From Azolla caroliniana (lineage: Eukaryota > Plantae > Polypodiophyta): DNA of 64,000 nt. Shown one piece after another: positions 2,140 through 50,700 of the stretch. Below the pieces are notes generated by a model. The model searched no databases, was not told where the DNA came from, and saw nothing but the letters and a program-made list of their open reading frames with translations. How positions within the stretch are numbered: position 1 is the first letter of the stretch; each line of letters begins with the position of its first letter. The position numbers and the translations under genes were made by a program. The stretch lies in contig JBHGNT010000009.1 in the NCBI GenBank assembly GCA_043228905.1, positions 1,178,001 through 1,242,000 on the forward strand. Direction: 5' to 3'.

Positions 2140-2660
2140 TGTCAAGGACATAATCAAGATTTGAACTCATCACCACTTGTATATAGTCAAGTGTTATATT
2201 CTAACCAACACATCCAACTACATAGTCATGTTATATATATCTTAGCATATTATTACTAGATTATCTAGTTCAAGTTGTAGGAGTTTTTAGAAAGTTCTAG
2301 AACTAGAAGGTTCTAGAGGGTTCTAGAATATTCTCCCAAATATTCTCGAGAATATTCTAACACATATACTTCAACTCGCAGTATAAATATTTGTAACCTC
2401 CTTAGTCCCTTTCAAGGGATTCAATGCCAGTCATTGACACATTAATCTAGTATTCTTCTTTAGCCCCATCTTCTCTCCTTGATTTATATCTTTGTCTTTA
2501 TGCTCTTGTATTGTTCCTAGCATCTTAAGTTTCTCATCTCGTCGCTCCCAACTTCCAGAGTTTCTAGCCTCATCACGTCTAGTTCCACTTTCGTAACCTT
2601 ATGAATCATAGCCTCGTCATTTGTGCTTTGTCGTAGTCTAGGGTTGGTGTGTCTGTGACA
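2140..2660 (+). mobile_element. 5' LTR of an old chromovirus-type Ty3 element; internal region degraded
   Basis: TGTCA...TGACA termini, TATAAATA at 2382, HSE array at 2290-2333. Followed by GTTTGAATCCCTT, which is complementary to the LTR-internal AAGGGATTCAA. Same layout as LTR 22543-22981. Confidence 0.75.
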
Positions 2661-5564: not shown

Positions 5565-7885
5565 TGTCGCGGGTTTTCACGTGTGTGTGTCAGAAACGGG
5601 GTGGGACCACTGGGTCTCGGACCAAGAAGCCGGTAATGGAGGAGAGATTATCCAAATTGGTTTCCGGATCGGTATCTGGCGGTATCAGGATCGGTTTACG
5701 GACTAGTCTCCAGACGCTGGTTGACGAGCTCGCGGATCGAGAAGTGTACACGATTTCAGAACTACAACCGGATAATGGGAGATGAATGCACGGGCTCGGG
5801 GTTCCAACTAAGCATGCAACAAGAGGGAACAAAGGTAAGAGCATAATAGGGACAGAGAATGACACCCAACGACACAAGGTGATCCAGATAGCAAAAAGAT
5901 GATCTATTAGTTCGGAATAATAGAAATACAAACAGACTCAGCGGACAACAGAGCTTTGATCTCTCCACACTCATGGACATTGATGCCAACAAGCCTCCAA
6001 TCGGGAGCACACAGGCTACCAACGCGAAATGGAGGCCTCACATCACAATGACCGAAACAGAAAACAAAAAATAGAGGATGGACAAAATGGATGACTAAAG
6101 AGCTCGGTTCGGCAACACTTCCCTCTCTAGCACAAGTTCAACACCTCCCTTTTATAGCACAAGGGGAGGCCGTTACATCACAGATTATGACAACCATTTC
6201 TTTTAGTGGTTCTTCCTCGATTCTCTCTCCCCTCATATCCTAATATTTGCGTGGGACATAAAGTACCCATTAACTACTCTACTTAGTACTTATGCTATTT
6301 ACAATTGTTGTTACATAAAAATAAGTTTTGTGTGCATCCATGCACACCCCATTTCACGCGTGTTCGACTCCTTTTTCCCCTTATGGCCGGAATCCTTCAT
6401 GACATCCACCCCCACCAAACCACACATCCTCTGGTATGTGCCGGTCTAGCGAAGTAGTGGGGATTCCGGTCCGCCCCTTACTCGTCCTCTCCTGATCCGT
6501 CATTGACTGACACATCAACCTCGCTGTCTTCCTCTTCTGCTTTCCGATCCAGTTCCGGTTCGTGCCGCTTCTTGAAGCCCTTGATCCATTTTCCTGCAAT
6601 TGGAATTGCGATCCTCGTGTTGGGAGAAAGGTCCCTCCGGATGGGAAGAAGAGTATGAGCTGAATCGGATGGAACCAATGGATAATTCGGCCAAGGCCGA
6701 GAATCAATTGTATAACTGATTCGGGAGACTATATTTTTAAATAGTCTAGATATGCTCATTGAGGTTATATTTGTAAATAGTTTGCTATGTGTATGAGTAT
6801 ATATACACTTAGGGCAAGTAGTTAAGAAAGAGTGATAATCATTATAGTTGAACAAGTTACAGTGAGTAGTTGCCTTTGTAACTATGAGAGTGAGAGAGTA
6901 AGTAAGAGTAGTAACTCTGTCACCGTCTGTTAGATGAAGAAGAGCTCGAGGTTGATGCCTTCGAGTCTCCCTGTACTCCTCTTCATACACATTGTGATTT
7001 GGTTATCTTGGGGTTTGTGGACCCCTGTGGTTTTTCCCTTTCGGGTTTTCCACGTAAAACATCGGGTGTCTCTGTATTTTCTATTTCCTGTTGTCTGTGC
7101 ACTTTCGTTTTCGTTTTTGCACCCAAGCATACGTATTTCCTATTTTTGGGTTGTCGTTGGTGCTCGTTACCACGTAAGGCCTGAACCACCGCCTCACGAA
7201 CTTCCGGGTTGACTGACGCTGATTGTTGAGGCTGCTGTCGTAGACCAACACCTAGTCGCCTTCCCCTCGATCTTCCTTGACCGGAGTCGGTGCGTCCGAT
7301 TGAAGCGGCCCTTTTTCTTCTTCCTTGCATCTTCCAACCTTGTTGTTGCTCGTTCCGCATCCTCTGGCCTTTGCTCTAGCTGTTGGATCCTCGCCGCCAG
7401 CAACTCCTCCCGGTTCATCTCAACCGTCTAGTCGATTGCCGTCCATGACACTATTGTTTTCTCCACCGGCATAGTCGGCTTTTGCCCGAACATGAGTTGG
7501 CTGGCATAGTCACCAAACTATGCGTAGTCCGGCCGACCCACAATGCATATGGAAGGAGCCTTGGCCAATTTCCGACTTGCTCACTGCATGCTCGTACTAT
7601 AGCCTTGACGATCGATCGGTTCGTGCCCTCTTTCGACCTTTCTGTTTGCCTCTAGATTGTATACCATCGTGAGGGAGAGCTTGACCCCTAGTCGGTCGAA
7701 CAACTCCTTAGCTTCTTGCACATCTAGCTCCCCTCGGTCGGCTACTATTTTCCCGATGCAACCCTACCAATAGATCACATTCCTTGAGTAAGAACCGGCA
7801 TACGACCGCGATTGTCTTGTTCATTAAGGCCCGATCCTCCACTTGGTTCGTCAAATCTTCTCTAGCAAGAACCAGGTACCTCATT
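5565..7885 (-). mobile_element. W-family Ty3 relic: 3' LTR (5565-6404) and integrase end
   Basis: TGTCG...TGACA termini, PPT complement TCCACCCCCACC at 6405, integrase motifs homologous to element C. Inserted in the Copia RT; flanking 4-mer CCGA. Confidence 0.85.
6618..7150 (+). mobile_element. Truncated Copia solo LTR inside the W integrase
   Basis: Starts TGTTGGGAGAAAGGTCCCTCCGGATGGGAAG, like LTR 55156 and the reverse complement of 25362-26016. Its 3' end and about 30 bp of host are missing. Confidence 0.75.
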
Positions 7886-10426: not shown

Positions 10427-10826
10427 TGTCATGATGACACTCACATCATACCTCAAAAGGATTTGAACCCACGACCTTGTCATACACATGTCAAATCCTT
10501 AAACATTGTATTAATATTCTTATATGTATATTTCTTAGAATATATAATCTAATATCATAGGAATATTCTATATTACTCTACATTCTAGAATAACCTAGAA
10601 TATTCTAGAGTGTTCTATACACTAGAACCTTCTAGAATACTCTAGAAACCTTCTAAATTACTCTACATTCTAGGATGACCTAGAATATTCTAGAGTGTTC
10701 TCTATTACTTATAAATAGGGATCTATCAATCATCCCAAACCAAAATTGGTTAAACGCCATTTTGTAGCACTCTATTGCCTACTCCTTCTAATCCATTTTA
10801 CTCTTCAATACAATATTTCCCTTTCT

Positions 10827-10860
<34 letters not shown>

Positions 10861-10865
10861 TGACA
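10427..10865 (+). mobile_element. Chromovirus-type solo LTR (439 bp)
   Basis: TGTCA...TGACA termini, TSD AAACG/AAACA. Same length and motif order as 22543-22981: reverse B box, HSEs, TATA, AATTGGTTAAACGCC, CT tract. Confidence 0.85.
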
Positions 10866-11405: not shown

Positions 11406-12172
11406 TCCAACTTTTGTCTATGTAAAGTCATACACAATGATTACCATCCAATTATTTTAAATCAGAGATTTAGTACAATTCGATACTCAGGTTCTGAAAG
11501 TGTTTTCATCACAATTTGTTTCTTAGTATCGAATTTAGGTTTAAAGTTTTTAGTTTATTTTTTTCGAGAAAACAAAAAACTTTAAACCTGAATTCGATAC
11601 TAAGTATCGAATTGTGATGAAACCTAAATTCGATACTAAGTATCGAATTTGAGTAAAATAGGGTGTTTTCATTATAATTCGATACTTAGTATCGAATTTA
11701 GGTTTAAAGTATTTTGTTGATTTATTTTCGTAAGTATCGAATTGTGATGAAACCTAAATTCAATACTAAGTATTGAGTTGTGATGAAAACACCCTATCAA
11801 CTCGATACCAAGTATCGAGTTGTGATGAAAACAAGGTGTTTTTTTCATCATAATTCGATACTTAGTATCGAATTTAGGTTTCGAATTGTGATGAAAACAT
11901 CTCGTTTGCATCACAATTCGATACTTAGTATCGAATTTAGGTTTAGAGTTTTTTTTTTTCAAGAAAAAACTATAATTAAAGAAAGTGAAAACTTTGAACG
12001 TGAATTCGATACTAAGAATCGAATTATGATGAAAACACTTTGAACTTGAGTATTGAATTGTACTACAATTTGAATTTGTTACATTGTATCGAATTGTACT
12101 AAAATCTTTGTTTTTAAAATAGTTGTGTCGATGGTAATCATTGTGTATGACTTTACACTAACAAAAGTTGGA
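11406..12172. mobile_element. Foldback/MITE-like element with long TIRs and arrays of a 23-bp palindrome
   Basis: About 80-bp inverted termini (TCCAACTTTTGT... / ...ACAAAAGTTGGA) and about 10 full or half copies of AATTCGATACT(A/T)AGTATCGAATT. Confidence 0.75.
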
Positions 12173-16183: not shown

Positions 16184-16450
16184 CATTGGAACCCACATCA
16201 AGACCCTTTGACCCCCCACTTCTTTTCGAGAGGCTTGGGTGGAAATAAAATTAGGCTTAGTGTATAGTCACTTTCGAGTATACTACATATTGTACACTAC
16301 TAGAACTCTTTTAGTTTAAGTTCTATTTTTTACTTAATTTTATTTTAGTTATGATGACTGGATAAATACTCTTTTGTTGTAAACCAATTGTCTCATGGGC
16401 CAAATTTGGCCTTAGAAGACGTTAATATATCTTTCTTTCTTTCTTTCTTT
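16184..16450 (+). mobile_element. 3' fragment of the same LINE family as 16528-21880
   Basis: Near-identical to 21602-21880, including the (TTTC)n tail, which runs into the (TC)n tract of LTR A. Confidence 0.9.
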
Positions 16451-16601
16451 TCTCTCTCTCTCTCTCTCTCTCCGTGCTTGCATCTCTCTCTCTCTTGCTC
16501 CTCGGTTCAAGGCCCCCATGGTCCCGCAGTTTTGGAATCACTTCTAATTTTGGGCGCTTGCTCTTCCTCGTTTTAACAACACACACACACACACACACAC
16601 A

Positions 16602-16649
<48 letters not shown>

Positions 16650-17115
16650 CGCCTAATGGCTCTCTCTGTCGCTGTCGTTGCCGTCGCCGTCACCGTCGCC
16701 GTCGTCTGCAGCCGTTGTCTGCAGCCGCTGCAACCGTCGCCGTCTGCTCTCTCTCTCTCGCTCGCTTCCTCGTCTCTCTCTGTCGCCGTCGCCGTCGCTG
16801 CCGTTATCTGCGGCCGTCGCCGTCTGCCACCGTGCAGTCGTCCACCGTCTTCTGCCGTCTGCTGCCGCCGTCAGCCGTCAGCTGCCGTCGTCTACCGTCG
16901 TTGGACGACTGCCACCGTCACCGTCGCCGTCACGGGGTGTTTTCTTCTCCGTTCTTGATGTGGTGAAGTACCTTTTTCTCGACGAGTTCGTGGGTGGGTT
17001 CTTTTGGTGTGCTCGTCCCGTGCTACAAAATGCCGATGTGATTGCGACACACACACAAACTCGGTTAAGTCTCGAACCCATTTATTTTACCTTTTTTTTT
17101 CTTATTGCCACCACA

Positions 17116-17928
17116 ATGACGTCTAGACGGACTAAGGAACTTAAGGATATACAAGACGAGGCTATAAGTAAGGAGGACTTTTTAGATATGTTTAATCGTT
17201 TAACAAAAATAGAGATGGATATGAAAAAATGGGTGAAAGACACCGAAACCTACAAGAAAAAAGATAGAGAGGAAAAAGACGCCCTCAAGGCCGAAATAGA
17301 ACAACTTAAAGTAGAAAACATCGACCTTAAAAAACAACTTAAGGACATCGAGGTATCTCGAGAAGACGGTGAAATATCCTCTATAGAGGATATAAAGGAC
17401 GAAATTAAAAAAGTTAAAGAGGAAGTTAATAATAACATAGAGTTAGCTAAAACAGGTTGGGTAGATGTGGTTAAAAGAAACATTAAAAAAGAAATAAAAG
17501 ATGAAAATATTGTTAACACCACCCTTGAAGAAGAGAAAATGCGTCAGGCCCGACGCTTAAATGTACGTGTCACTGGGCTCAAGGAAGGTGCATCCCCAAA
17601 TGAGGACGCACAAACACTTGGGAAAATGTTAGGGTACACAGAGGCCCTACCTATCACCAAAGCATGGAGGGCCGGGCGTGACACAACTAGGAAGAGAGCC
17701 TTAGTCCTTCAATTTAAAGACTTAGACTCTAGAATCACTTTCTTTAAGAAGAGACCAATCCTTCGAGGAATGGATGGGGACCCCATCTATCTCGATGAAG
17801 ACCTCACTAAGATGCAAATTGAGCATCGCAAGAGTTGTATGCCACGAGTTATGCAAGCTCGTAAAGAAGGCCATCGCGCCTTTTACCGAGACGGGCGAGT
17901 GATCATAAATGATCGCACTACTAACTGA
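17116..17928 (+). CDS. LINE ORF1 protein (coiled coil plus RRM-like region)
   Basis: ATG at 17116 (MTSRRTKELK), K/E-rich heptads, and RRLNVRVTGLKE and IYLDEDLT motifs typical of LINE ORF1. Confidence 0.85.
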   Translation: MTSRRTKELKDIQDEAISKEDFLDMFNRLTKIEMDMKKWVKDTETYKKKDREEKDALKAEIEQLKVENIDLKKQLKDIEVSREDGEISSIEDIKDEIKKVKEEVNNNIELAKTGWVDVVKRNIKKEIKDENIVNTTLEEEKMRQARRLNVRVTGLKEGASPNEDAQTLGKMLGYTEALPITKAWRAGRDTTRKRALVLQFKDLDSRITFFKKRPILRGMDGDPIYLDEDLTKMQIEHRKSCMPRVMQARKEGHRAFYRDGRVIINDRTTN

Positions 17929-20900
17929 CGGCGTGTGGCCCATGTGACAGAAAATGCACTTAGGATGACCCTATGGAATTGTAATGGCGCACTCTGGGCA
18001 CACCCCGGCCGCCTAGAGGAGATACTAAAGGTATCTGATATACTTTTCTTGGTAGAAACACATCAGAGCCCAAATAGAGGACTCCCACGGGTCGAAGGAT
18101 TCCGTTGGGAGTCCGCTTTTAGACAAACCTCACGTCGACACACTACTAGGGGATCTGGAGGTGTCGCGATACTATTTCGTAGAGAGCTACATAATAGGAT
18201 AGAAATAATGAAGATAGACCTAGAAGCTCGTTTTATGTGGGTGAAAGTCTCCACAAGCAAAGACCATGCAGTATTTTTCGCCATTTGTTACTTTCCCCCA
18301 AAAGGATCCCGTTATAATACTAGTGGCTTGACGAGATTAGTCGATGAAGGAATGCCACATGGGCCTTCTCCATACGAACCCCTATCGGATGACATAATCC
18401 GATATTCTTCCCAAGGAGAAGTATTTCTTGTAGGAGACTTCAATGCGAGAACCCAATCCCGACAATGCACAGTATTTCAGATGAATAGAAACCTAGAAAT
18501 GGTAAATGTTGATCCTTTAGACATAGGCACCACACGTAGATCAAAGGATCAAGGTGCGGACGCCACGGGCTTTGGCCATCATCTGCTCGAACTTGGCAGT
18601 CGGCACCAGATGGTCATATATAATGGTTTAGCTAAGTGGCCGGGCTCGGAAGAGCTCACATGTTTCCCACATGGAGGAGGGAAAAGCACAGTTGACTATT
18701 TAATAGGGCGCCCGGCAGCTACCCACTTGATTAACTCCTTCCGAGTGGCCCCATGCCCTATTGGCGCAGACCATAGCTTCTTATACTTCGAGCTAAAATG
18801 TGATATCTCTAAGGTCACCAAGTCTAGTCAACCATGCCATCACACCACAATACATTTCACACATGAGATCTCTGACATATACTCTCAACATGTTCAGGCC
18901 CATCTCCCCTCCATTGATCCCTCTCTACCGTTAGAAAGCCTTAGTACAAAACTCACACACATCCTTCACTCCGCAGCAGCTAGCAGTTTCCCATATACAA
19001 AACACTCAAATCAAGGTAGATCATGATCAATGCCACAAAATAAATGGTATGACGAGGATTGTAGGGACCTACATAGACAACTTACAGTATCGCAACTCAA
19101 TGGTAGTATTACCTCCACACAAGCTCGCAAAGAAATGCGTAAGATGACACGTCGTAAGAGACGAGCGTGGGAGGCATCCCAATACTGGGAACTCTACCAT
19201 ATGCTCATGAGTAGCGATTGCGCCACGGCATGGAAGAGACTACGGGAGCCAAGACCACAAACACCCATCGAAGATCCCGAAACTTGGCACACATATACAG
19301 AGAGACTTTACCAAATCCCAAACCAACCACCTTTTCCAATGCCTTCCACACCCCGGCCTACCACGGGGACACTTTTCACGACCTCTAGGGTCATGAAGTT
19401 CATAAAGAAATTACAACATAGGAAGTCCATGGACCACACAGGATTGCGAGCAGAACACATTATATATGCGAGAGAGTGCCTAGCTCCCTTGCTAACTCTA
19501 ATCTTCAATCGTGCCCTTGCGGAGGGTTTTCCACCACAGTGGACTATGAATACAGTGACCCCCATACATAAAGGGGGGGACCCCATGGACCCAAATACAT
19601 ATAGGACCATTATGATAGGTCATACCCTTGCTAAGTTATATGGTGCAGTAATGGAAGCAGAGCTTAGCGACTACATGGAGACCCTAAACCTTCGTGCACC
19701 TGAACAAGCTGGCTTTAGACGAGCCTTCTCCACTATTGATCACATCTTCACACTTAGATGCCTAATTGACCAAACTAGGGCTCGCAAGAAGAGATTATAT
19801 TGTTGTTTTGTGGACTTCCGCAAAGCCTTTGACACAGTCCCTAGAGATCGGTTGTCTGATAGACTTAAAAGCTTGAGGATACCAGATGATATGGTATGGG
19901 CCATCTACGCACTATATGAACAAGTGTCCGGGTGTGTCCGATGCCCAGGTGGCCTATCCAATCGTTTCACTAGCACTATTGGTGTAAAACAAGGTTGCCC
20001 CCTATCACCGACGCTTTTTGGGATCTACATTGATGAGATCACAGATTTTATTGCTCGTGAGGGAGGCATTGGAGTGGTCCTTGGGGATACACAGGTTCGT
20101 ATCTTGCTCTATGCGGATGACATAGTTTTGCTCTCTGAATCCGAACACGACCTACAGAGGCACCTCAATGCCTTAGATGACTTTTGTGTACAACGAGGAT
20201 TGGTAGTGAATCTAGGGAAAACGAAAGTCCTTATCTTCCACACATCGGCCCAAGTTAGAGCTAAGTGTCACCTAACTATCTCCCATAGCCCAGTCGAGGT
20301 GGTTGGATCGTACGTATATCTCGGAGTCACTTTTAATGCCCGCTCAGGTAAATTTTCGATGACACAGGCAGCGAAGGATAGACTCATGAGAGGACATGCA
20401 TCCCTCTCACTCCTAGAGAGACAATGCCACCAAGCACACTTTCAAGAGCCACGGACTAAAGGGTGGCTCTTTGACTCATTAGTGACCCCCTCCCTCATGT
20501 ATGCATCAGCGGTTTGGGCTCCAGGATTACCATCCTTCATGTGGACGCAATTAGAGAGACCATTGGTGATGATGCTATCACGCCAACTCCGAAGCAAATC
20601 GACTGTACCACATGACATTATTAGGGCTGAGTTCACGTTACCCCCAATGCTAGTAGAGGCACTTTTTTAACTTGTAGTCTTTATTGATAGGATACATAGC
20701 CAACCACATGATAGAATATCTCATCAAGCCTTTAAGGCCTCTCGATCATTGTATGAGTCCGGCTATACTAGCTCATGGTATGGCATGATGGTGACTTGGC
20801 TTCTTGCGAATGGTCTAGACATTAATAACCTACCTCCCCTTAGGTACAACCACACGAGTGATAACACCTTAATCTCTCATGAGAACCGCAATAAAGTAAT

Positions 20901-21666
20901 ACGCCAAGAAATATGGCAAATTTACACTCGGTGTAAATGGATCACCCCACTAGAGCCACTCCCATCTAAAATGTCGTACTATAAGAAACACTTCATGCAC
21001 TTCTCTGAGTTAGGTTTTATCACACGGCCAAAATATCTAGATGTATTCTTACCACATGCACTAAGGGTTGCCATTGGACAACTTAGAATATCGTCTCACC
21101 AACTTGAGATTGAAAATGGCCGTACTAGTGGAGTCCCTAGGGAGGAAAGGATATGTAGGTTATGTCACATAGAGATAGAGGATGAGTACCACTTTACATG
21201 CAAGTGTCCAACCTATGCCGAGATAAGGGCAAAATACCAAGACATACTTGGTCCGTCTCCCACCCTCCCCAAACTATTAGATACTCTAGATATAAAGAAA
21301 TTAGGCAAATACATTCTAGAGCTAAAACAACACAGAGAGAATAAATTACAAAATGTTGACAATAATGTTGCTAATGATCACGAACATGTAACAAATGCAG
21401 TTTTTCAGGAACCTGAGGAGACAACGAATGTTGACACACTTGCACCACTCGACCTTTCCATTGATGAGGCAGAAAACCAGAGAAGAACCAGACGTCCTCG
21501 GGTGCCGGGTTTCAAAACAACTCAACGTGATGTGGAAGCAATATTGAAAATAAGGGAACGTGAGCTACACCGCCTAGAAGCCATGGCTAGGGCACTCTCT
21601 ACATTGGAACCCACATCAAGACCCTTTGACCCCCCACTTCTTTTCAAGAGGCTTGGGTGGAAATAA
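17929..21666 (+). pseudogene. LINE ORF2 (APE endonuclease, RT, C-terminal zinc motif); one frame with two internal stops
   Basis: WNCNG, ETH, GDFNAR, DY and DH (APE); QAGFR, DFRKAFD, KQGCPLSP and YADD (RT); RICRLC...EDEYHFTCKC. Stops at 19024 and 20668. Confidence 0.92.
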
Positions 21667-21912
21667 AATTAGGCTTAGTGTATAGTCACTTTCGAGTATA
21701 CTACATATTGTACACTACTAGAACTCTTTTAGTTTAAGTTCTATTTTTTTTACTTAATTTTATTTTTAGTTATGATGACTGGATAAATACTCTATTGTTG
21801 TAAACCAATTGTCTCATGGGCCAAATTTGGCCTTAGAAGACGTTAATACATCTTTCTTTCTTTTCTTTCTTTCTTTCTTTCTCCACGCATGCGTGTAACA
21901 ACGCGACATATT

Positions 21913-21930: not shown

Positions 21931-22558
21931 AGGGCGGCAAAGGAGTCGAAAGATGAGGGGATCGGAGCTAGTAGAGGCAATGGCGGTGGCCGTCGACCGA
22001 CTGGTAAGCGCTCGTGAGGGGACGGGTACCCTCGACAGAGCCATTGAATCGATCGTCGGCTCTATAGGCCGGTTCGGAGGGAAAGACGCCACAAGTTATT
22101 TGGAGGCTTGCCGGGCCGAAATGATCATGAGGGATAATCCCGGTGGACAGGCGGCTGTCCGGATTCCCTCGGGTGGTGACGCCGAGCATCCACGCGGAAG
22201 TGCTCGAGGTGCTGGCCGGATGTCAAACTTGGGAGGATTTCGAGCTGTAGCTCCTCGAGAAGTACGGGTTTGACGGCTCGCTTCGGTTGTCGAGGCGGGA
22301 CTTCATGGCATGGGTGGAAAGCCCCGGAAAGGGGAGGAACACGTCGGCGCTCCTCCAAGAGTTCGAAAAACGGTTTGCGCGGCTGTCGAAGCTGGACCGG
22401 ACCGTGCTCGAAACGAGTCGAGTACTACTGTTTGTCAAGTCAGTGGACGCGCTCGACAGGGAAAAGGTGGGTCCCCTATTGGAGACGGACGAAGGGCTCA
22501 CGACATACTGGGCCGTGGTAAAACGGGTCTACAGCAGCCGTTTGTCATGATATGGCAA

Positions 22559-22612
22559 GACTCGAACCCATGACCTTAGGTTATATGGGTCGAGCTCTTG
22601 ACCATTAGATCA
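22559..22612 (-). promoter_or_regulatory. tRNA-like Pol III A box and B box, antisense in U3
   Basis: Minus strand reads TGATCTAATGG ... GGTTCGAGTC with the canonical 45-nt T8-G53 spacing. The cloverleaf is not preserved. Confidence 0.6.
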
Positions 22613-22688
22613 TCTATTGTAATACGTAGGATATTATTTTCATTTATATTTTATTATAGGAAATTAGTGTATATTCCAGATTTCTCTA

Positions 22689-22706
22689 GAACATTCTAGA
22701 AGCTTC
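22689..22706. promoter_or_regulatory. Perfect 4-unit heat-shock element
   Basis: GAA-CA-TTC-TA-GAA-GC-TTC, about 20 bp upstream of TATAAAA (22727). Also present at 47471-47488. Confidence 0.7.
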
Positions 22707-22837
22707 AGGATTACTCCTGAAAACACTATAAAAGAGGGCACTAGGCATTATATTGAACCAAATTGGTTCAACGCCAGTCTTAAGGCTTTTAGCCACCATT
22801 GTATATTCTCTTCATATAATACATATCTTTCTTATCA

Positions 22838-22880
<43 letters not shown>

Positions 22881-23054
22881 CTCGCTCACTTCTTCCTTCT
22901 CTCGAAGAAGTTCCACACCTCTCATAGTACTAATCCTTCGTTTAGTACTATTCCTTCTCTGTCTCAGTACTGTTCCTGACAGTTTGAACCAATTTTCCTA
23001 CCTTTTGTCTCTCTCATTTCCTACTAATCTTTTATTCCTCTTTTCTTTCATCCC

Positions 23055-24206
23055 ATGGCCACTGTTAGCGCTGAAGAATATCAATCTGTTTTCTCGGAAT
23101 TTCAATGCTTGAAGGAGAAGTTCCATGCTTTGGAACAAGAAAACCAACGGTTGTTGGGGGATCTTCAGCAAATCTCCTTAGAAAAGCAGCAAACGCAACA
23201 ACAACATGAGGAACTTGCGTTACGCATGCAACAACTCGAAGCAACCATCGTAGCGATGCAACAACAAGGGCCCGGAACACAAGGGATTCATAAAGAACCC
23301 AAGATTAGCCTTCCCACGAAGTTCGATGGAACGCGATCGCAGTTTAGAGGGTTCCTTAACCAGGTACGATTAGTTATTCAAATGCATCCTTCCCGATATC
23401 CCACCGATGCATCACGAGTGGGTTTAGTAGGCACTTTGTTAAGTGGCTCAACGTTGTCATGGTTCGCTCCACTATTAGAAAAGGAATCTCCGTTACTCAA
23501 CAATTTTGAAGAGTTTCTAGGTGAGTTTAAAGCATGTTTCGGAGATACTGACAGCATCAGGATCGCAATCAACAAAATCCGGCGATTACGCCAAGGTGAC
23601 CGTCCAGCCTCCACATACGCTGCAGATTTTCGCCTACTTGCCGCCGATATCCCTTGGGATGACCAAGCGTTGATGGAGCAATTCCGTTATGGTTTACGGA
23701 ACGACGTTAAGGATTTACTCTTGACCTTCCCCGAAGAGCCAAAGTCCTTAACAGAAGCAATCAGTCGCGCGGTGAGATGTGACAACCGCCTCTTTGAGCG
23801 ACGTTTGGAACGACAACTACAGATGCCGAGGGCAAGATCAGAGCCCACCTACGCCTCAGTGGTAGCAAGACCTTTTCCGAGGGAGTCATATAATGCGCCT
23901 CCAGCGAATACTCCGACTCCGATGGAGATTGACACTGCACGTCGTCGAGGGCCATTATCCGAAGAAGAAAAGCAGCGACGCCGTACAAATCGAATATGTC
24001 TTTACTGCGGTGGACCAGGACATATCGCAATAAATTGCCCCCATAGGCTAAGAAGACAGGTAAACCAAATAGTCGCTAGTTGTAATTGTACTAAACCCGA
24101 GCCTATTTCAATAGGGATATCTGATAGTCCTAATAGTACTAATATCCTAGATCTAGCAAACAAATTTGATGTCCTTAGTCAGTTAGAAGAAGAGTTAAAT
24201 GACTAA
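23055..24206 (+). CDS. gag: Chromovirus Gag (383 aa)
   Basis: N-terminal coiled coil, PTKFDG, LRQG..ASTY..DF, PMEID and CLYCGGPGHIAINC zinc knuckle; the ORF is intact. Confidence 0.93.
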   Translation: MATVSAEEYQSVFSEFQCLKEKFHALEQENQRLLGDLQQISLEKQQTQQQHEELALRMQQLEATIVAMQQQGPGTQGIHKEPKISLPTKFDGTRSQFRGFLNQVRLVIQMHPSRYPTDASRVGLVGTLLSGSTLSWFAPLLEKESPLLNNFEEFLGEFKACFGDTDSIRIAINKIRRLRQGDRPASTYAADFRLLAADIPWDDQALMEQFRYGLRNDVKDLLLTFPEEPKSLTEAISRAVRCDNRLFERRLERQLQMPRARSEPTYASVVARPFPRESYNAPPANTPTPMEIDTARRRGPLSEEEKQRRRTNRICLYCGGPGHIAINCPHRLRRQVNQIVASCNCTKPEPISIGISDSPNSTNILDLANKFDVLSQLEEELND

Positions 24207-25361
24207 GTCCAGCCAAAATAGGAGCCGTTTGGTTGGACAGCCCTAGATCTGTGCAGCCCATTAGTGGTTCCATTCCCTCTAAGCAAGTTAGTGATGTGTT
24301 CGTAGCCCAAGTAATAGTTAGTACTAAAAGTACCCCTCCAGTACATGTCCTAGCACTCCTAGATTCCGGAGCTAACTCTTGCTTTATGGATAAGAAATTT
24401 GCTCAAGCTCATAAGATATCCCTAAGAAAACTCCAGTGTCCAGCCTCTGTAGTAGTCATTGATGGACGTCCCATTGCTTCTGGAAATATCATAGAAGAGT
24501 TAGAGCCCATTAATATTGTCCTAGATAACTTAGCATGTGTAGTATCATTTAATATTATTAGTATCCCAGAACATCCTATAGTTTTAGGATTACCGTGGTT
24601 CGAGTTACATAACCCAGACATAGATTGGAGAACAAGAGAAATCCAGTGTCGACAAACCCAATGGTCAACTCAGAAGATGGCAACCATTTCGCTACGTCAG
24701 TTGCGTAAAGAAGGGTGCAAGGAGGAAATGTTCCTCTTTGCAATATCAGTAAACCCCTCCAGCACCACTAAAGAAGAATCCACCGTTCAACTTCCCGAGA
24801 AGTATCGTCATTACGCCGATGTGTTCAATAAAGTACAAGCCAACACACTTCCTCATCATCGACCGTACGATTGCCCCATCGATTTACAACCGGGAAAAGA
24901 GCCGCCATGGGGACCGATCTACAATTTGTCACCAACCGAGCTGGAAGTCCTTCGGGCCTATATAGAGGAGAATTTGGAAAATGGTTACATTCGGCATTCG
25001 AAATCTCCAGCCGGCGCGCCCATTTTCTTCGTCAAGAAAAAAGATGGATCGCTTCGTCTCGTTGTAGATTACCGTGGCTTGAATAAGGTTACAATCAGGA
25101 ATAGGTATGCTCTTCCCCTTATCTCAAGTCTTTTAGAACGGATCAATGGTGCCAGGTTCTTCACGAAGATCGACTTATGGGGAGCATATAACCTCGTACG
25201 GATCCGACCAGGAGACGAATGGAAGACCGCGTTTCGCACCAGATATGGGCACTTCGAGTATATGGTCATGTCGTTCGGCCTCACTAATGCACCGACAGTC
25301 TTCCAGCACATGGCTAATGATATATTCCGAGATCTATTGGATGATTGTTTGATCATCTATT
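24203..25361 (+). pseudogene. pol: Chromovirus pol part 1 (protease and RT N-terminal half)
   Basis: LLDSGAN, SPAGAPIFFVKKKDG, DYRGLN, KTAFRT and FGLTNAP. It lies in the -1 frame relative to gag and is cut at IY|LDD. Confidence 0.93.
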
Positions 25362-26016
25362 TGTTGAGAACTCGACGTTCCTTATGTCCGACGCTCGGCC
25401 ACAACCGAGATTCTTTACATACACAGAAAAAACAGGTAATGAAACGCGACACAAAAGAGGAGAAATGATACACAGGAGGTATACGTGGAAAAACCCCAAA
25501 ATAGGGGAAAAAACCACGGCAGCCCACAAGCTGCAAACTGTCGCTATGTAGAAATATACAACAGTGAGATCACTGAGGCAACGACCTCGTGCTCTCAGAT
25601 CTTCGCCACAGGCGGCGGTTACAACAGAGGCAACGACCTCGTCTCTCTCTCTCTCTCTCTCTGTACAGTTACGTGCTCTGATTTCTTCTTGCACCAACAA
25701 CGAAGAATAATAACAAGAATGACAACATATACTAAAAGTTTGCCCTAAGTCATATTTATACTAATATGACTTTTCGGCTATTTACAAATGTAGCCTCGAT
25801 GGGCTCCATCCGGCTCTCCGCAGTCGGGTACTCCTCATCCGGTTCATACTGGGCCTACACCATCCGACTCTCCGCAGTCAGGTACTCCTCATCCGGTTCA
25901 TACCGGGCCTACACCATCCGACTCTCCGAAGTCGGGTTCTCCCCATCCGGTTCATACCGTTTGTTCGTCGGCACTGTTCTTCTCCCTTCCCATCCGGAGG
26001 GACCTGTTTCCCAACA
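25362..26016 (-). mobile_element. Copia solo LTR inserted in the RT YLDD motif
   Basis: TGTTG...CAACA termini, TSD CTATT (25357-25361 and 26017-26021). Homologous to LTR 55156; contains 51-bp tandem repeats. Confidence 0.92.
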
Positions 26017-26375
26017 CTATTTGGATGATCTACTGGTTTATTCAAAGACCCAAGAAGAACATGATTCTCATGTACTATTAGTACTAAAACGACTTCGAGA
26101 ACATGGTCTGTATGCAAAGCTGGAAAAATGTAGTTTTGGGTGCAACCAAGTGGAATTTCTTGGCTACATCATTTCGTCAGAAGGCATCTCCATGGACCCA
26201 GCTAAGGTCAAAACGGTGGTGGAATGGCAGACTCCACGTTCGGTGCGGGATGTGCAATGCTTCTTAGGCTTTGCCAATTTTTACCGGAAGTTCATACAAG
26301 ATTACTCAAAGATCGTTCTACCTCTCACACAACTTACCAGGAAGGGACAACCATTCATCTGGTCTGAAGAAACGG
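26017..26375 (+). pseudogene. pol: Chromovirus pol part 2 (RT C-terminal half)
   Basis: YLDDLLVYS, KCSF, FLGYII and FLGFANFYRKFI. Confidence 0.92.
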
Positions 26376-45542: not shown

Positions 45543-47332
45543 CCGTATTTAGTGACCACAAGAATCTTGCCTACTTTCAGGATGCTCGTGTGTTGAATCG
45601 ACGTCAAGCTCGGTGGGCCCACTTCCTCACGCGTTTCGACTTCAAAATTACATATCATCCGGGGAGGCACCAAGGGAAGGCAGATGCATTATCACGGTGT
45701 TCGTATCTAGCACCCCGTCCCGACGAGCCAACTTTCGATAACCAAAAACAAGTCATCTTGGGACCGGCACGACTACAAGCAACACAGATCTTTGACATGC
45801 CTATGGATTCCCGCGTTATCGATACCATACGTGAAGACTTGAAGACAAATGCGTTCGCCCAAGCTATACTAGCACAAATTGATCCCTCTCGAGCGTCGTG
45901 TTCACAGTCGCAACCACCAGGTACAGACTATCGGCAATTCAAATACCATGATGGATTACTCTTCTTTAAAGAACTTTTGTATGTTCCTAATGGTTCTTGC
46001 CGCCTTCGAGTAGTACAAAACTGTCATGACACATATACAATTGGGCATTTTGGTAGTACTAAAACATTACATTTAGTACAACGAACATTCTAGTGGCCCT
46101 GTATGCGACAATTTGTCGAGGATTTTGTTCGGACTTGTGATACATGTTGCAGAGCGAAAATGCCAAGGCATCATCCATATGGTTTATTAGAACCATTACC
46201 AATTCCAAGCAAGTCGTGGCAATCCATTGCTCTAGACTTCATCGCAGATCTTCCAGTCTCTAAGGGGTTCAATGGGATTCTAACGGTGGTCGATCGATAT
46301 ACGAAGCTGGCTCATTTCTTGCCATGTACTAAGGAGATCTCCAGTGAAGACACTGCCGAAATTGTCATGCGTGAAGTATGTCGGCATCATGGACTTCCCG
46401 ATAGTATCATCAGCGATCGTGGACCCCAGTTCGTGTCAAAATTCTGGAAGCACCTTTTTAACATGCTCAAGGTCACTTGTAACCTCTCCTCCGGCTACCA
46501 CCCACAAACCGACGGCCAAGCTGAACGAACAAATCAAACGTTGGAGCAGTATCTGCGGTGCTTTCTCAGCTATCATCAAGATGACTGGGCATATATTCTC
46601 CACATCGCTGAATTTGCCTATAACAACTCTATCCACGCATCCACTAAAGTTACGCCATTTTATGCTTATACGGGATGTCACCCCCGGTGGAGTGTACTTG
46701 AAACCCTAGAGGTGTCCACAAATCCGTGCGCGGAGGATCGTTTGGAGCAGTTACGCAAGATACAAGCGGATTTATCTACTCATCTCCAGCAATCTCAACA
46801 AACACACAAGGTCTACGCGGATCATCATCGACTTCCATCTAGTTTTAATATTGGAGATCGGGTGTGGCTGCTACGATGACACATCAAGACTACTCGTCCA
46901 TGTGCGAAGTTAGATTATCGGCGATTAGGTCCTTTCCGTATTATTGGACAAATTAATGATGTCGCTTTTCGTCTCGATCTACCTCCTCAACTTCGGATAC
47001 ATCCGGTGTTTCATAGTTCTCTCCTCGAACCCTACCACGAGAGCACCATCCTAGGACGTCTTATCCAACCTCCACCCCCGATCGAGCTTGAAGATGGGCC
47101 GGAGTACGAGGTTGCTGCCATCCTTGATTCCAGGATTGTTCGCAACAAGCTCTACTATCTAGTCGATTGGCTAGGCTATAGCCCCAACGAACGTACTTGG
47201 GAACCGATCGAGAATGTGACCAATGCTCGTGCTCTTCTTGAAGACTTCCATCGTCAATATCCACACAAACCAGGTCCTCAATCCAAGACGACTCGTGACA
47301 CTCGTCGTTTTAAAGGGGGGATAGTGTCATGA
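45543..47332 (+). pseudogene. pol: Chromovirus pol part 4 (RNase H end, integrase, group I chromodomain)
   Basis: DHKNL, GHFG, CDTC, SDRGPQF, QTDGQAER, GPF and [10 protein letters not shown]...[17 protein letters not shown]. Stops at 46091 and 46877. Confidence 0.93.
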
Positions 47333-47762
47333 TATGGCAAGACTCGAACCCATGACCTTAGGTTATATGGGTCGAGCTCTTGACCATTAGATCATCTATT
47401 GTAATACGTAGGATATTATTTTCATTTACATTTTATTATAGGAAATTAGTGTATATTCCAGATTTCTCTGGAACATTCTAGAAGCTTCAGGATTACTCCT
47501 GAAAACACTATAAAAGAGGGCACTAGGCATTATATTGAACCAAATTGGTTCAACGCCAGTCTTAAGGCTTTTAGCCACCATTGTATATTCTCTTCATATA
47601 ATACATATCTTTCTTATCATCACACACACACTCTCTCTCTCTCTCTCTCTTTCTCTCCGTCTCGCTCACTTCTTCCTTCTCTCGAAGAAGTTCCACACCT
47701 CTCATAGTACTAATCCTTCGTTTAGTACCAATTCCTTCTCTGTCTCAGTACTGTTCCTGACA

Positions 47763-50700
47763 CCGTTTCGACAAACGGCGCGATTGGAGCGATGGAAGCT
47801 CGTTGGGGTCAGGGCCGGTCTCGAGGAGGAGTCCCGAGGAGCCGGTATCGGTGCCAGCCGGAAGGAAGGAAGAGACCAGAATCTGGCCAGAATCGGGGTC
47901 GGCATCGAACGACGTGGTCAGAGGCCCATCCGGATGAGCGGCTCTAGAGGAGTTGGCACAGATGGTGCGCGACCTGCAGATCGCATAGGCCCGGAGAGAC
48001 AGTGGCGAACAACCTCGCGACCGGAGGCCGCCGGCTGGGAAGCGGTGCATGTGGTGTGATGCGATCGGTCACATTCGGAAGGATTGCGCGGATTTCGCCG
48101 ACGCACTCAGGACCAATGTGGTGTACCTCTGGAACGGGCGGGTCACGCAAGCGAGACCTGGAGAGCCCTAGAACTGAATACGGGGCGCAACGGAATGAAG
48201 AGGTTGATGTTAAAGGCCGTGGCACGACACGTCGAAGCCGTGAACTACTCAGTGTCGGCAGGAATTTGGGTCGGGGGTAATGAGACCCGGAAGACGAAGG
48301 ACTCCGGATTCTGACCGCAAGTGCTAGAAGGCCTCTCCGGAGTTCGGCTGAAGAAGGAAGAGGTAGACTGCGCGGAACAATGGGTCCAAGAGGTCACCGG
48401 TTGGGACGATCCGGTCGAAGAGAAAATGGGCTTCGCAGAAGCCGCTTGCCAGAACTACGAGGTTCTGGTGGAGGACAAACGGGCAGGAAAGGCCGGAGAG
48501 GTCGGTCCCCCGCAGAGGTATGAGACCCGGTTCGGACCAAAACCGACCAGTGCCGGCAACCTAGGCGCGCTGGACGGAAAGAAGTAGGCGGGGTTTCGGT
48601 TGAGCACCGAAATCGAAAGGACCACAGACCTAGAAAAGGTCCTGGAGGAACGTATCCTCGACAGCAAAGTGGAGTTGTCATTGCGGGAGGTGCTGGGAAT
48701 CGCCAAGAGGGAGTTCCACGACTCTATCGTAGACTTGGTGAAGCGGAAGAGGCTCTCGACGGAGCCGGAACCGGAGAAGCCGGTGGAGGTGCGGACCACG
48801 CACTTGGAAGACGAAGCCCTAGAAGACGAGTTGGCGGGAAGCCACTACATGAAGCCGCATTGGGCCAGGGCAACTACGAAAACCCCTGTACGGATCGACA
48901 ACATTCTGGAACTGGTGGTGGCGTTGGTAGACCATGGATCCGATATCAACCTGATGTCCATGGATTTCTACAAGAAGGGTAAATGGCCGATCAACACCAA
49001 GCATAGCTAGAAGATACGGGTAGTGACGCGCGCCAGGAAAGAACTACATGGGGCCTGTCCAAACGTACGGGTGAAAATCGGCGATGTCGAGATCGACTAA
49101 CACTTCTTCGTGCAGGAGACGTCCTCGCATCCGGTTATACTAGGAGAGCCATATATCACGGCGGCATGGATGGAGACCAAGGTGCTGGACAACGGTTCAG
49201 CCTATGCAAGAGTCAAGAGCCAGGACAGGTGTCACTCGGTCCAGTTCCTAACGGTGCGACCAAACCACAAGCATAACCGCGAGGCCCTCGACGGCGAAAC
49301 CCGCGGGGATTTTTAGAGAGGGCTATCAAGGCGTGGGGCCACGATAGTCCAGACACCCGGGAAGAACCCCACAAATGTACAGTACGGAAAAAGACCTGGA
49401 CCATAGGTAGGAAATTTTGGTTCTCTGACAACGGAGGTTGTACTATAACCGGCGTCAGCAGCCGGGAAAGGAAGCGAGCGGAGGAGCGGCTCAGGGGATG
49501 CAGAGTCCTCTTCCCCGACGAAGACATCAGCGGCGCCGTGGAGGCGGTCTCTTTTGACGACACCTTGGGCGAACTGCGAAAGGTGATCGGTGAAGACCTT
49601 AGAGAAGACCGGACCGTTCCGGTAGGGTCAATGGGAATGTACGAAGTCATCGCGGACTTCGGGGAAAGGATCGGGTCGGATCGGACGGCCCGTGTGGATA
49701 CAAAGTACAAGACTGTGGACCGGAAAGTGAGGCCAGTCGCGGCATCCTTGCTGGAGGGCAGCGAGGAGCGGATAAAAGGGGTCGCGTCGGACCCAAGTTT
49801 ACGGAATCCGGCTGGCATAGGGCACCGGTTCACCGACATAACGCTACGGGAGCTCAAGGTTAATGGGGGCGGCTTTCTACTGCCGGCGGAGGAGGACCGG
49901 TTTCGGAGAATGCTCGGGAGGCACCGGTTTCGGAGAATGCTCGGGAGGCACCGGAAGGCTTTCGCATTCTCACCGGAGGAGATCGGGTGCGTAGACCCGA
50001 CAGTGGTCGAACCGATGGTGATCTTCACGGTACCGCATGTACTGTGGAATCTCAAGCCAATTCCGGTGCCGAGAGCTCACATCCCGAAGTTGATGGAGCT
50101 CCTGAAGCAAAAGGTGGAGATGGGCATCCTCGAACCGTCGAGTGCCCCGTATTCGAATCGGTGGTTTATGGTGCTGAAGAAGAAAGGCACGCTGCGCTTC
50201 ATTCAGGACCTGCAACCGGTCAACAAGGCGACCATCCGTAATGTAGGAATCAGACCGACCATAGACGAGTTCGCGGAGGCCTTCGCTGGAAGGTCGATCT
50301 ATTCTGTCGGTGATCTGTACTCCGGGTACGATCAGTTCCAACTAGCCGTGGAGAGCAGAGACATTACGACGATGCGGACTCCTCTCGGCCTAGTGCGGAT
50401 GTGTACCCTGCCACAAGGAGGGACGAACTCAGTGGCTCACATGGTGAACGCGATGAATAAAGTGCTCAAGGATTGTATCCCGGACATCACCATGCCATTC
50501 TTAGACGACATCCCGATCAGGGGATGCCCAGTGGAGAAAAAGGACGAGGCAATCGGGCCAGACGGATGTCGGAATTTCGTGGCGTCCCACATCGATGACT
50601 GCGAGAAGGTGCTGTAGAGACTAGAAGGCGCGAGGCTCACCTTCTCCGGGGAAAAGTCGGCCTTCGGGCAATTAGAGATCATGGTCGTCGGGCACCTATG

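Follow-up and report, generated by a model that had tools for sequence, protein, structure and literature searches.

Antisense A and B boxes of the tRNA type lie at the U3 edge of the long terminal repeats (LTRs) in a whole clade of chromoviruses, where we found them in about 20 diverged subfamilies. Judged from sequence, the unit formed by these boxes looks like a type-2 Pol III promoter under selection rather than like a tRNA, and it is very probably a TFIIIC/Pol III site maintained by selection. Coordinates given below without a locus name refer to the window, that is the whole stretch of 64,000 nucleotides of Azolla caroliniana DNA that was analysed.

Results

Element A and the LTRs of the window

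Self-comparison and Pfam matches showed that positions 22543-47762 are one LTR retrotransposon, element A, which is broken by nested insertions and stops and measures about 5.9 kb without the nested insertions. Its 5' LTR (22543..22981, plus strand, TG...CA) is 97.5% identical to its 3' LTR (47325..47762, plus strand), and the TSD CCGTT is present on both sides (22538-22542 and 47763-47767). The internal region comprises, all on the plus strand, gag (23028..24206; PF03732, PF19259), protease and RT (24203..26375, with a repeat inside at 25367-25806 and nested elements from 26376 on), the RNase H end, integrase, SH3 and chromodomain (45556..47332, with stops at 46091 and 46877) and a polypurine tract (PPT, 47312..47324). 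The Pfam matches thus follow the order gag, PR-RT-RH-INT and C-terminal chromodomain (PF00385, E 2.8e-15). When the translation was inspected by eye, the Y/W/Y residues of the aromatic cage, by which chromodomains read H3K9me, were present. We found no tRNA primer binding site (PBS) behind the 5' LTR; instead, positions 22984..22995 (plus strand) are the 12-nt complement of the predicted RNA 5' end at 22760..22771 (plus strand), which would act as self-primer. A self-priming PBS also follows the LTR at 2140 (11-nt complement, 2414-2424 / 2663-2673), and the fact that primer and PBS vary between families yet remain complementary gives direct sequence support for self-priming. By domain order, cage and PBS we classify element A as a self-priming Tcn1-type chromovirus (Ty3/gypsy); the hits included no named reference, and the tree was built from the fetched loci only. 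According to the accessible text of PMC6317226, self-priming among plant chromoviruses marks Tcn1, which is reported there only from mosses and club-mosses. The descriptions of this clade in the accessible parts of PMC2864245 and PMC6317226 agree with element A in the aromatic-cage chromodomain, the self-priming PBS, the 5-bp TSD and an LTR of about 440 bp with a TATA box; unlike what we report here, nothing resembling a tRNA or a Pol III element is mentioned there for the LTRs.

Read from its outer edge, the LTR presents the B box and the A box, both antisense, then an AT-rich stretch, a heat-shock element, a TATA box and the RNA start. The putative tRNA-derived type-2 Pol III promoter unit of the 5' LTR occupies 22543..22619 on the minus strand (tRNA positions 1-77), points outwards and holds 14 of 14 diagnostic positions. 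It comprises, on the same strand, the B box (22559..22568, positions 52-61), the adjoining variable-loop stretch (22572..22576, positions 44-48) and the A box (22602..22612), in which T8, A14, G18 and G19 are kept and G10 is not. The AT-rich stretch upstream of the unit (22620..22660, minus strand) is a candidate seat for TFIIIB, the four-unit array at 22689..22706 (plus strand) is the heat-shock element of the Pol II promoter, and the TATA box lies at 22727..22732 (plus strand). In the 3' LTR the unit (47325-47401, minus strand) has its B box at 47341-47350 and its A box at 47384-47394 and is directed inwards, over the PPT and into integrase.

All six box motifs named in the original prediction were read at the coordinates it had given. 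Of the three LTRs that it called chromoviral, the one at 22543 is so by its chromodomain and the one at 10427 by a family link. The latter, a solo LTR of a related family (10427..10865, plus strand; B box 10460-10469, A box region 10503-10513), has a changed G19, 13 of 14 diagnostic positions and a T4 run directly behind the B box, and its family is tied to the chromodomain integrases of L135, L140, L162, L166, L167 and L183 (68-86% DNA identity). The third LTR (2140..2660, plus strand; B box 2158-2167) belongs to another family; it has a weak A box at 2205-2216 with a spacing of 41, lacks A14 and retains 12 of 14 diagnostic positions. Because tblastn gave no gag, pol or chromodomain match behind this LTR, it is placed in the Tcn1 type by inference only.

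An antisense B box is absent from the 5' end of the window's remaining LTR families (26376, 31582 and 33711 types), and a small family (5760-6180, 12763) shows a B-like match directly behind its TATA box. Positions 16453-21883 hold a LINE with stop-broken endonuclease and RT frames, flanked by a 283-nt repeat (16184-16462 / 21602-21883, 96%). An AT-rich array of nested inverted repeats at 11440-12100 would form several long hairpins and has inverted sequence on its flanks; its scores against plant miRNA families in Rfam are weak and below threshold, and it is possibly a foldback/MITE-like element.

Screening of related chromovirus LTRs

The strict 9-mer of the B box occurs 13 times on the minus strand of the window and 10 times on the plus strand. 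Matches being this frequent on both strands, the four in the window LTRs prove little and relatives were therefore tested. These were chosen by their integrase/chromodomain protein alone, the best 80 of 334 encoding stretches giving 77 distinct loci that are 54-97% identical. A rule placed the LTR start after the PPT in 66 of the 77 loci, 62 of which had at least 120 nt, and these 62 heads plus the three window LTRs made 65 heads, which a threshold of 75% identity (baseline of shuffled heads 53%) grouped into 27 clusters; the clusters have common ancestry and come mostly from one assembly series. An exact antisense B box was found in the first 90 nt of 16 of the 27 cluster representatives, against 0.18 expected from shuffles (maximum 2), while the sense strand of the same 90 nt and nt 110-200 each gave 0. 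With one mismatch allowed, 23 of 27 representatives carried the antisense box (4.2 expected). The unit is also present in L155, L182 and L183, three of the 11 loci that the LTR-start rule missed.

B-box-like matches inside pol of L140, L143, L164 and L165 were rejected because they arise from conserved W-F-E-L codons. Viral contigs contained no relatives, and prokaryote genomes a single one, the 711-nt contig L198, which is without the unit. This contig codes for the end of a chromovirus integrase; although it stands in a bacterial genome record, it is probably eukaryotic contamination.

Conservation of the unit

Conservation was scored in a B-anchored set of 22 clusters (57 sequences), clusters with worse B matches being dropped; as the B box itself is the anchor, its scores are partly circular. 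Among features outside the anchor, an A-box 3' half is found 36-38 nt ahead of T54 in 15 of 22 clusters (0.33 expected), and G45-G46-T47 is present in 17 of 22 (0.31 expected). The G18-T54 distance at 22603/22566 is 37 nt, as in two host tRNA genes of L151, so that the tRNA spacing originally claimed stands for this copy; in the one at 2140 the distance is 41. Relative entropy amounts to 1.78 for the B box, 1.31 for positions 45-47 and 0.64 for the A box, of which the 5' half is weak, G10 not being kept, and T8, A14, G18, G19 and the spacing are. Pairwise identity between clusters reaches 0.83 at positions 45-47 and 0.61 at positions 8/14/18/19, compared with 0.36 in the upstream sequence and 0.35 both in the inter-box stretch and at position 59, which is free within the B box. 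The box positions are thus conserved far above neighbouring U3, as had been proposed, which goes against the sequence half of the refuting condition set with that prediction. To describe the rest of the LTRs as barely alignable was somewhat overstated, since they also have the R start and TCTAGAA repeats in common. Variants listed from four DNA runs included no change at box positions, which we do not count as evidence.

A neutral relic of an old tRNA or SINE insertion would account for the loss or decay of the unit in several lineages and for the absence of a tRNA fold. This reading, to which we give hardly any credence, is largely refuted, as far as sequences can tell, by the differential conservation just described (0.61-0.83 at box positions against 0.35 in between). 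It also has against it that multi-copy contigs have kept the unit better than low-coverage ones: 36 of 43 high-coverage and 8 of 14 low-coverage contigs show 13 or more of the 14 diagnostic positions (P 0.02; shuffled maximum 11), a comparison that omitted 3 of the 60 scored loci, of middle coverage.

Another reading is that the boxes are sites of Pol II factors, namely MYB-type WAACCA and W-box-like TGACY, and merely resemble A and B boxes. WAACCA stands at the A-box place in 10 of 22 clusters, TGACY stands in the loop in 8 of 22, and the LTR has other stress elements; however, most clusters have these motifs disrupted, whereas the tRNA-invariant bases and the 36-37 spacing stay, and we regard such sites as a most improbable explanation. 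Arrays of three heat-shock units were found in 8 of 22 clusters (0-0.03 each after shuffling), which suggests that these chromoviruses are heat-inducible; that no more than 8 clusters have them counts against the full account given in the Discussion. In the window, TTCTAGAA-type heat-shock element arrays lie in the LTRs at 22689-22706, 10580-10700 and 2290-2360.

T4 runs on the non-template strand would stop Pol III. Inside the unit they are absent from all 22 representatives (4 of the 57 sequences have one), against 6.8 expected. Between the boxes the count is 0 against 4.1 expected (P 0.007), with A4 there at 1 against 1.5, and upstream of the unit T4 is not depleted (4 against 5.4). A4 is however also somewhat rare over the whole unit (3 against 6.9, P 0.02), which weakens the strand argument drawn from T4. 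The sequence upstream of the unit is AT-rich (mean 0.74-0.83, against 0.56-0.66 elsewhere); it shows no excess of TATA (7 of 22 against 6.3) or CAA (5 against 4.7), and no conserved terminator follows the B box (8 of 22 against 6.5). For 21 clusters the run-off transcripts predicted measure anything from about 70 to 1,100 nt and share no conserved end.

These observations bear on what the unit would be kept for. The Pol III product itself may matter, the 3' LTR giving an antisense RNA over the PPT into integrase that would be self-limiting or feed siRNAs, and the 5' and solo copies transcribing host sequence on their flanks. The avoidance of internal T4, the kept A box and the position of the first T4 in the direction of the unit, 883 nt past the edge of the 3' LTR of element A, agree with this; the scatter of run-off lengths and the lack of a conserved fold do not, and we consider it unlikely. 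Since the RNA would have neither a conserved fold nor a conserved end, selection more likely acts on the bound complex. A site bound by TFIIIC alone, acting as an ETC-like barrier without transcription and with the A box as a passenger, would fit the far higher relative entropy of the B box and positions 45-47, the A box's weak 5' half as well as the lack of TATA or terminator signals, and ETC barriers are known (PMC12409998, accessible text). Going by the accessible text of PMC11724288, the A-box half at fixed spacing (15 of 22) and the avoidance of T4 would be superfluous for TFIIIC binding, and a site of this kind seems to us distinctly unlikely. The kept A box together with the absence of internal T4 argues for a complete Pol III promoter and against a site for TFIIIC only. 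The same source describes the B box as driving TFIIIC binding, positions 44-47 as affecting it, the A box as needed for TFIIIB and the inter-box DNA as dispensable, so that the conserved positions of the unit would be those that TFIIIC reads.

Distribution and origin of the unit

Among 68 loci with enough sequence, 12 gave no match to the unit profile, which was built from carriers. The loci without the unit include the high-coverage L177 (160x), L186 (53x) and L178 (24x) as well as all tested loci from the other assembly series, and because high-coverage relatives do without it the elements can amplify in its absence. In many carriers pol is open over about 1,200 aa, which makes the unit a trait of autonomous elements. 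In the box-less L175, L179, L180 and L188 no TG-start LTR directly follows integrase, and there is an apparent further reading frame instead. A quick tree was distorted by frameshifted rows and had noisy labels (5 changes against 6.6 shuffled), so that one gain and several, or the order of gains and losses, are not separable.

The distance from C61 to the LTR edge varies from 16 to 84 nt across the 22 clusters. Short duplications of the first LTR bases shift the unit inwards in L128, L130, L142, L146, L166 and L193 and explain much of this spread. The original prediction that the unit ends almost exactly at the LTR terminus is right for the 22543 family (4 nt from the edge) but not as a general rule, and an origin by primer-tRNA read-through, in which the CCA end would be the LTR terminus, is unsupported by these distances. 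A role of the unit as reverse-transcription primer was rejected because a self-priming PBS is present.

ARAGORN detected no tRNA gene in the window, and the covariance-model search that had been proposed gave no tRNA match in Rfam scans of LTR heads (window, 201 nt, 17 of the 77 loci). In the 13 clusters that are in register, the stems pair no better than column shuffles (acceptor 42 against 39.9, D 31 against 29.2, anticodon 31 against 27.9, T 42 against 43.5), and slid controls were also not clearly beaten. A functional tRNA gene was therefore rejected, the cloverleaf being gone and no covariance model matching. The unit profile, built without tRNAs, nevertheless matches host tRNA-Asn (E 0.031) and tRNA-Thr (E 0.41). 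The tRNA derivation and antisense orientation that the original prediction had claimed are upheld by the match to tRNA-Asn and by the strand distribution of the exact B box (16 of 27 antisense, 0 sense). The unit probably goes back to a capture event, the source being a tRNA, the head of a SINE or the end of a Helenus-like LTR in inverted position. Scoring against three host tRNAs (Asn, Thr, Asp) showed no decisive difference. A scan of viral contigs with a degenerate pattern found tRNA-Met genes in 16 of 26 loci checked, matches that do not name the donor since the pattern was self-designed. A further tRNA-like block, likewise antisense, occurs in one family within the open pol frame, in the protease-RT spacer (L132:1006-1047, L134, L136, L137, L133, L138); it reaches 11-12 of 14 positions, where the background reached 12 once in 336 windows, and may be a second capture or chance.

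The likeness to tRNAs could also serve the sense RNA, which would anneal to a host tRNA through the complementary stretch during packaging or strand transfer. Parallels are the bipartite PBS of Ty3 and the tRNA-Lys3-like stretch in HIV-1 U3. The orientation and the U3 place fit this proposal, the block at 44-61 is the most conserved, and most changes are transitions, tolerable by G-U pairs. Yet the element self-primes, any of the four bases occurs at position 59, and the stems have drifted; moreover, G53, G46 and G19 almost never turn into A (21, 20 and 20 of 22), a change that wobble would allow, while positions 51, 52 and 57 do undergo it. We rate this annealing as very unlikely.

Three host tRNA genes, Asn and Thr (L151:552-627, 831-906) and Asp (L148:128-201), lie 135-270 nt from truncated element ends; three such genes in 2 of the 77 loci are too few to call targeting. 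Targeting of the Ty3 kind is established, and TFIIIB on the unit might make it a landing pad that attracts the integration of this element or of other retroelements. None of the four window LTRs has an insertion upstream of the unit, and the nested insertions of element A sit in pol; the fetched loci, being short-read contigs in which repeats collapse, carry no weight on this point. We give this reading only a slight chance.

Discussion

The full account that we put forward, and to which we assign an even chance, takes the antisense unit for an outward Pol III promoter that keeps the adjoining heat-shock/TATA promoter open. TFIIIC would bind the B box, and the A box would place TFIIIB on the LTR's own AT-rich stretch, so that it adjoins the Pol II promoter back to back. 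Pol III would then fire outwards and read through the unit. The antisense orientation would seat TFIIIB inside the LTR whatever the flank and direct Pol III away from the Pol II start. The benefit would come from the bound complex, which would separate the LTR promoter from heterochromatin on the flank, either as a barrier of the tDNA type or as a patch poor in nucleosomes, and such a barrier would be useful to an element whose chromodomain retains its aromatic cage. tRNA genes and ETC sites are TFIIIC-dependent barriers in yeast and human cells (PMC12409998, accessible text), and our literature search found no report of barrier activity of tDNA-like sites in plants. That a chromodomain-guided autonomous lineage carries a portable tDNA barrier, in which an outward Pol III promoter and a heat-shock promoter stand back to back, is a tentative idea, which we place somewhat below an even chance.

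The comparisons with known systems that follow draw on the accessible text of the papers cited. The original prediction invoked Cassandra as precedent; this remains a precedent of the 5S type, and Helenus is the nearer one, being of the tRNA type. In Helenus/TRIMp3 (Kojima 2024, PMC10886601), as here, tRNA-derived LTR sequence that is mostly non-functional as tRNA is conserved around boxes A and B, and the B box lies a few dozen bases from the LTR end; one family is found in the non-seed plant Selaginella. Helenus elements are however non-coding, 311-1263 bp long and tRNA-primed, whereas those described here are autonomous, self-priming, 5-6 kb long and equipped with a Pol II promoter. In six LTR entries of the supplement the tRNA is sense and near the LTR 3' end, whereas the unit here is antisense at the 5' end; given this mirror image, an inverted Helenus-like end is one possible, speculative origin. 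The Helenus tRNA is proposed to transcribe the element, while the unit described here could not make genomic RNA. PMC10886601 states that 'not a few' Repbase LTRs resemble tRNA, treats TRIMs only, and argues that autonomous partners must use Pol II; antisense units are not described in it.

According to the same paper, the TRIMs Cassandra and Ajax also have a Pol III promoter within the LTR, but it is a 5S type-1 promoter in non-autonomous elements and drives their own RNA, unlike the unit here; Rfam scans (window, 201 nt, 17 of the 77 loci) gave no Cassandra-type 5S match. Foamy virus LTRs (PMC3993851) resemble the present ones in placing A/B-box Pol III units beside a Pol II promoter in an autonomous LTR retroelement. 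The foamy virus units have hairpins and terminators and yield miRNAs, whereas here there is tRNA-gene geometry and no conserved fold or terminator. With tDNA barriers and ETC sites (PMC12409998) the unit would share TFIIIC-binding boxes and a value that is possibly at the chromatin level; those are fixed host loci of yeast and animals, whereas this candidate site is on a mobile element. A full-text literature search, which covered few subscription papers and had Repbase outside its scope, returned no description of an antisense tRNA-type unit in chromovirus LTRs. What is new here is a putative LTR-borne Pol III promoter of the tRNA type, antisense and in autonomous chromoviruses.

The finding addresses the question of how chromoviruses remain transcribable after targeting silent chromatin. 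The LTR B box is conserved and can be point-mutated, which makes the barrier model open to direct testing in a moss. If the proposal is true, LTR-borne Pol III promoters would be known not just in non-coding TRIMs but also in autonomous elements, where they would serve some purpose besides the production of element RNA, and these elements would offer a natural test of tDNA-type insulation in plants. Genomes of this kind would then hold many TFIIIC sites outside tRNA genes. A portable barrier, if it exists, would let the element insert into heterochromatin yet stay inducible there, and thousands of Pol III/TFIIIC boundary sites would be scattered through the host genome.
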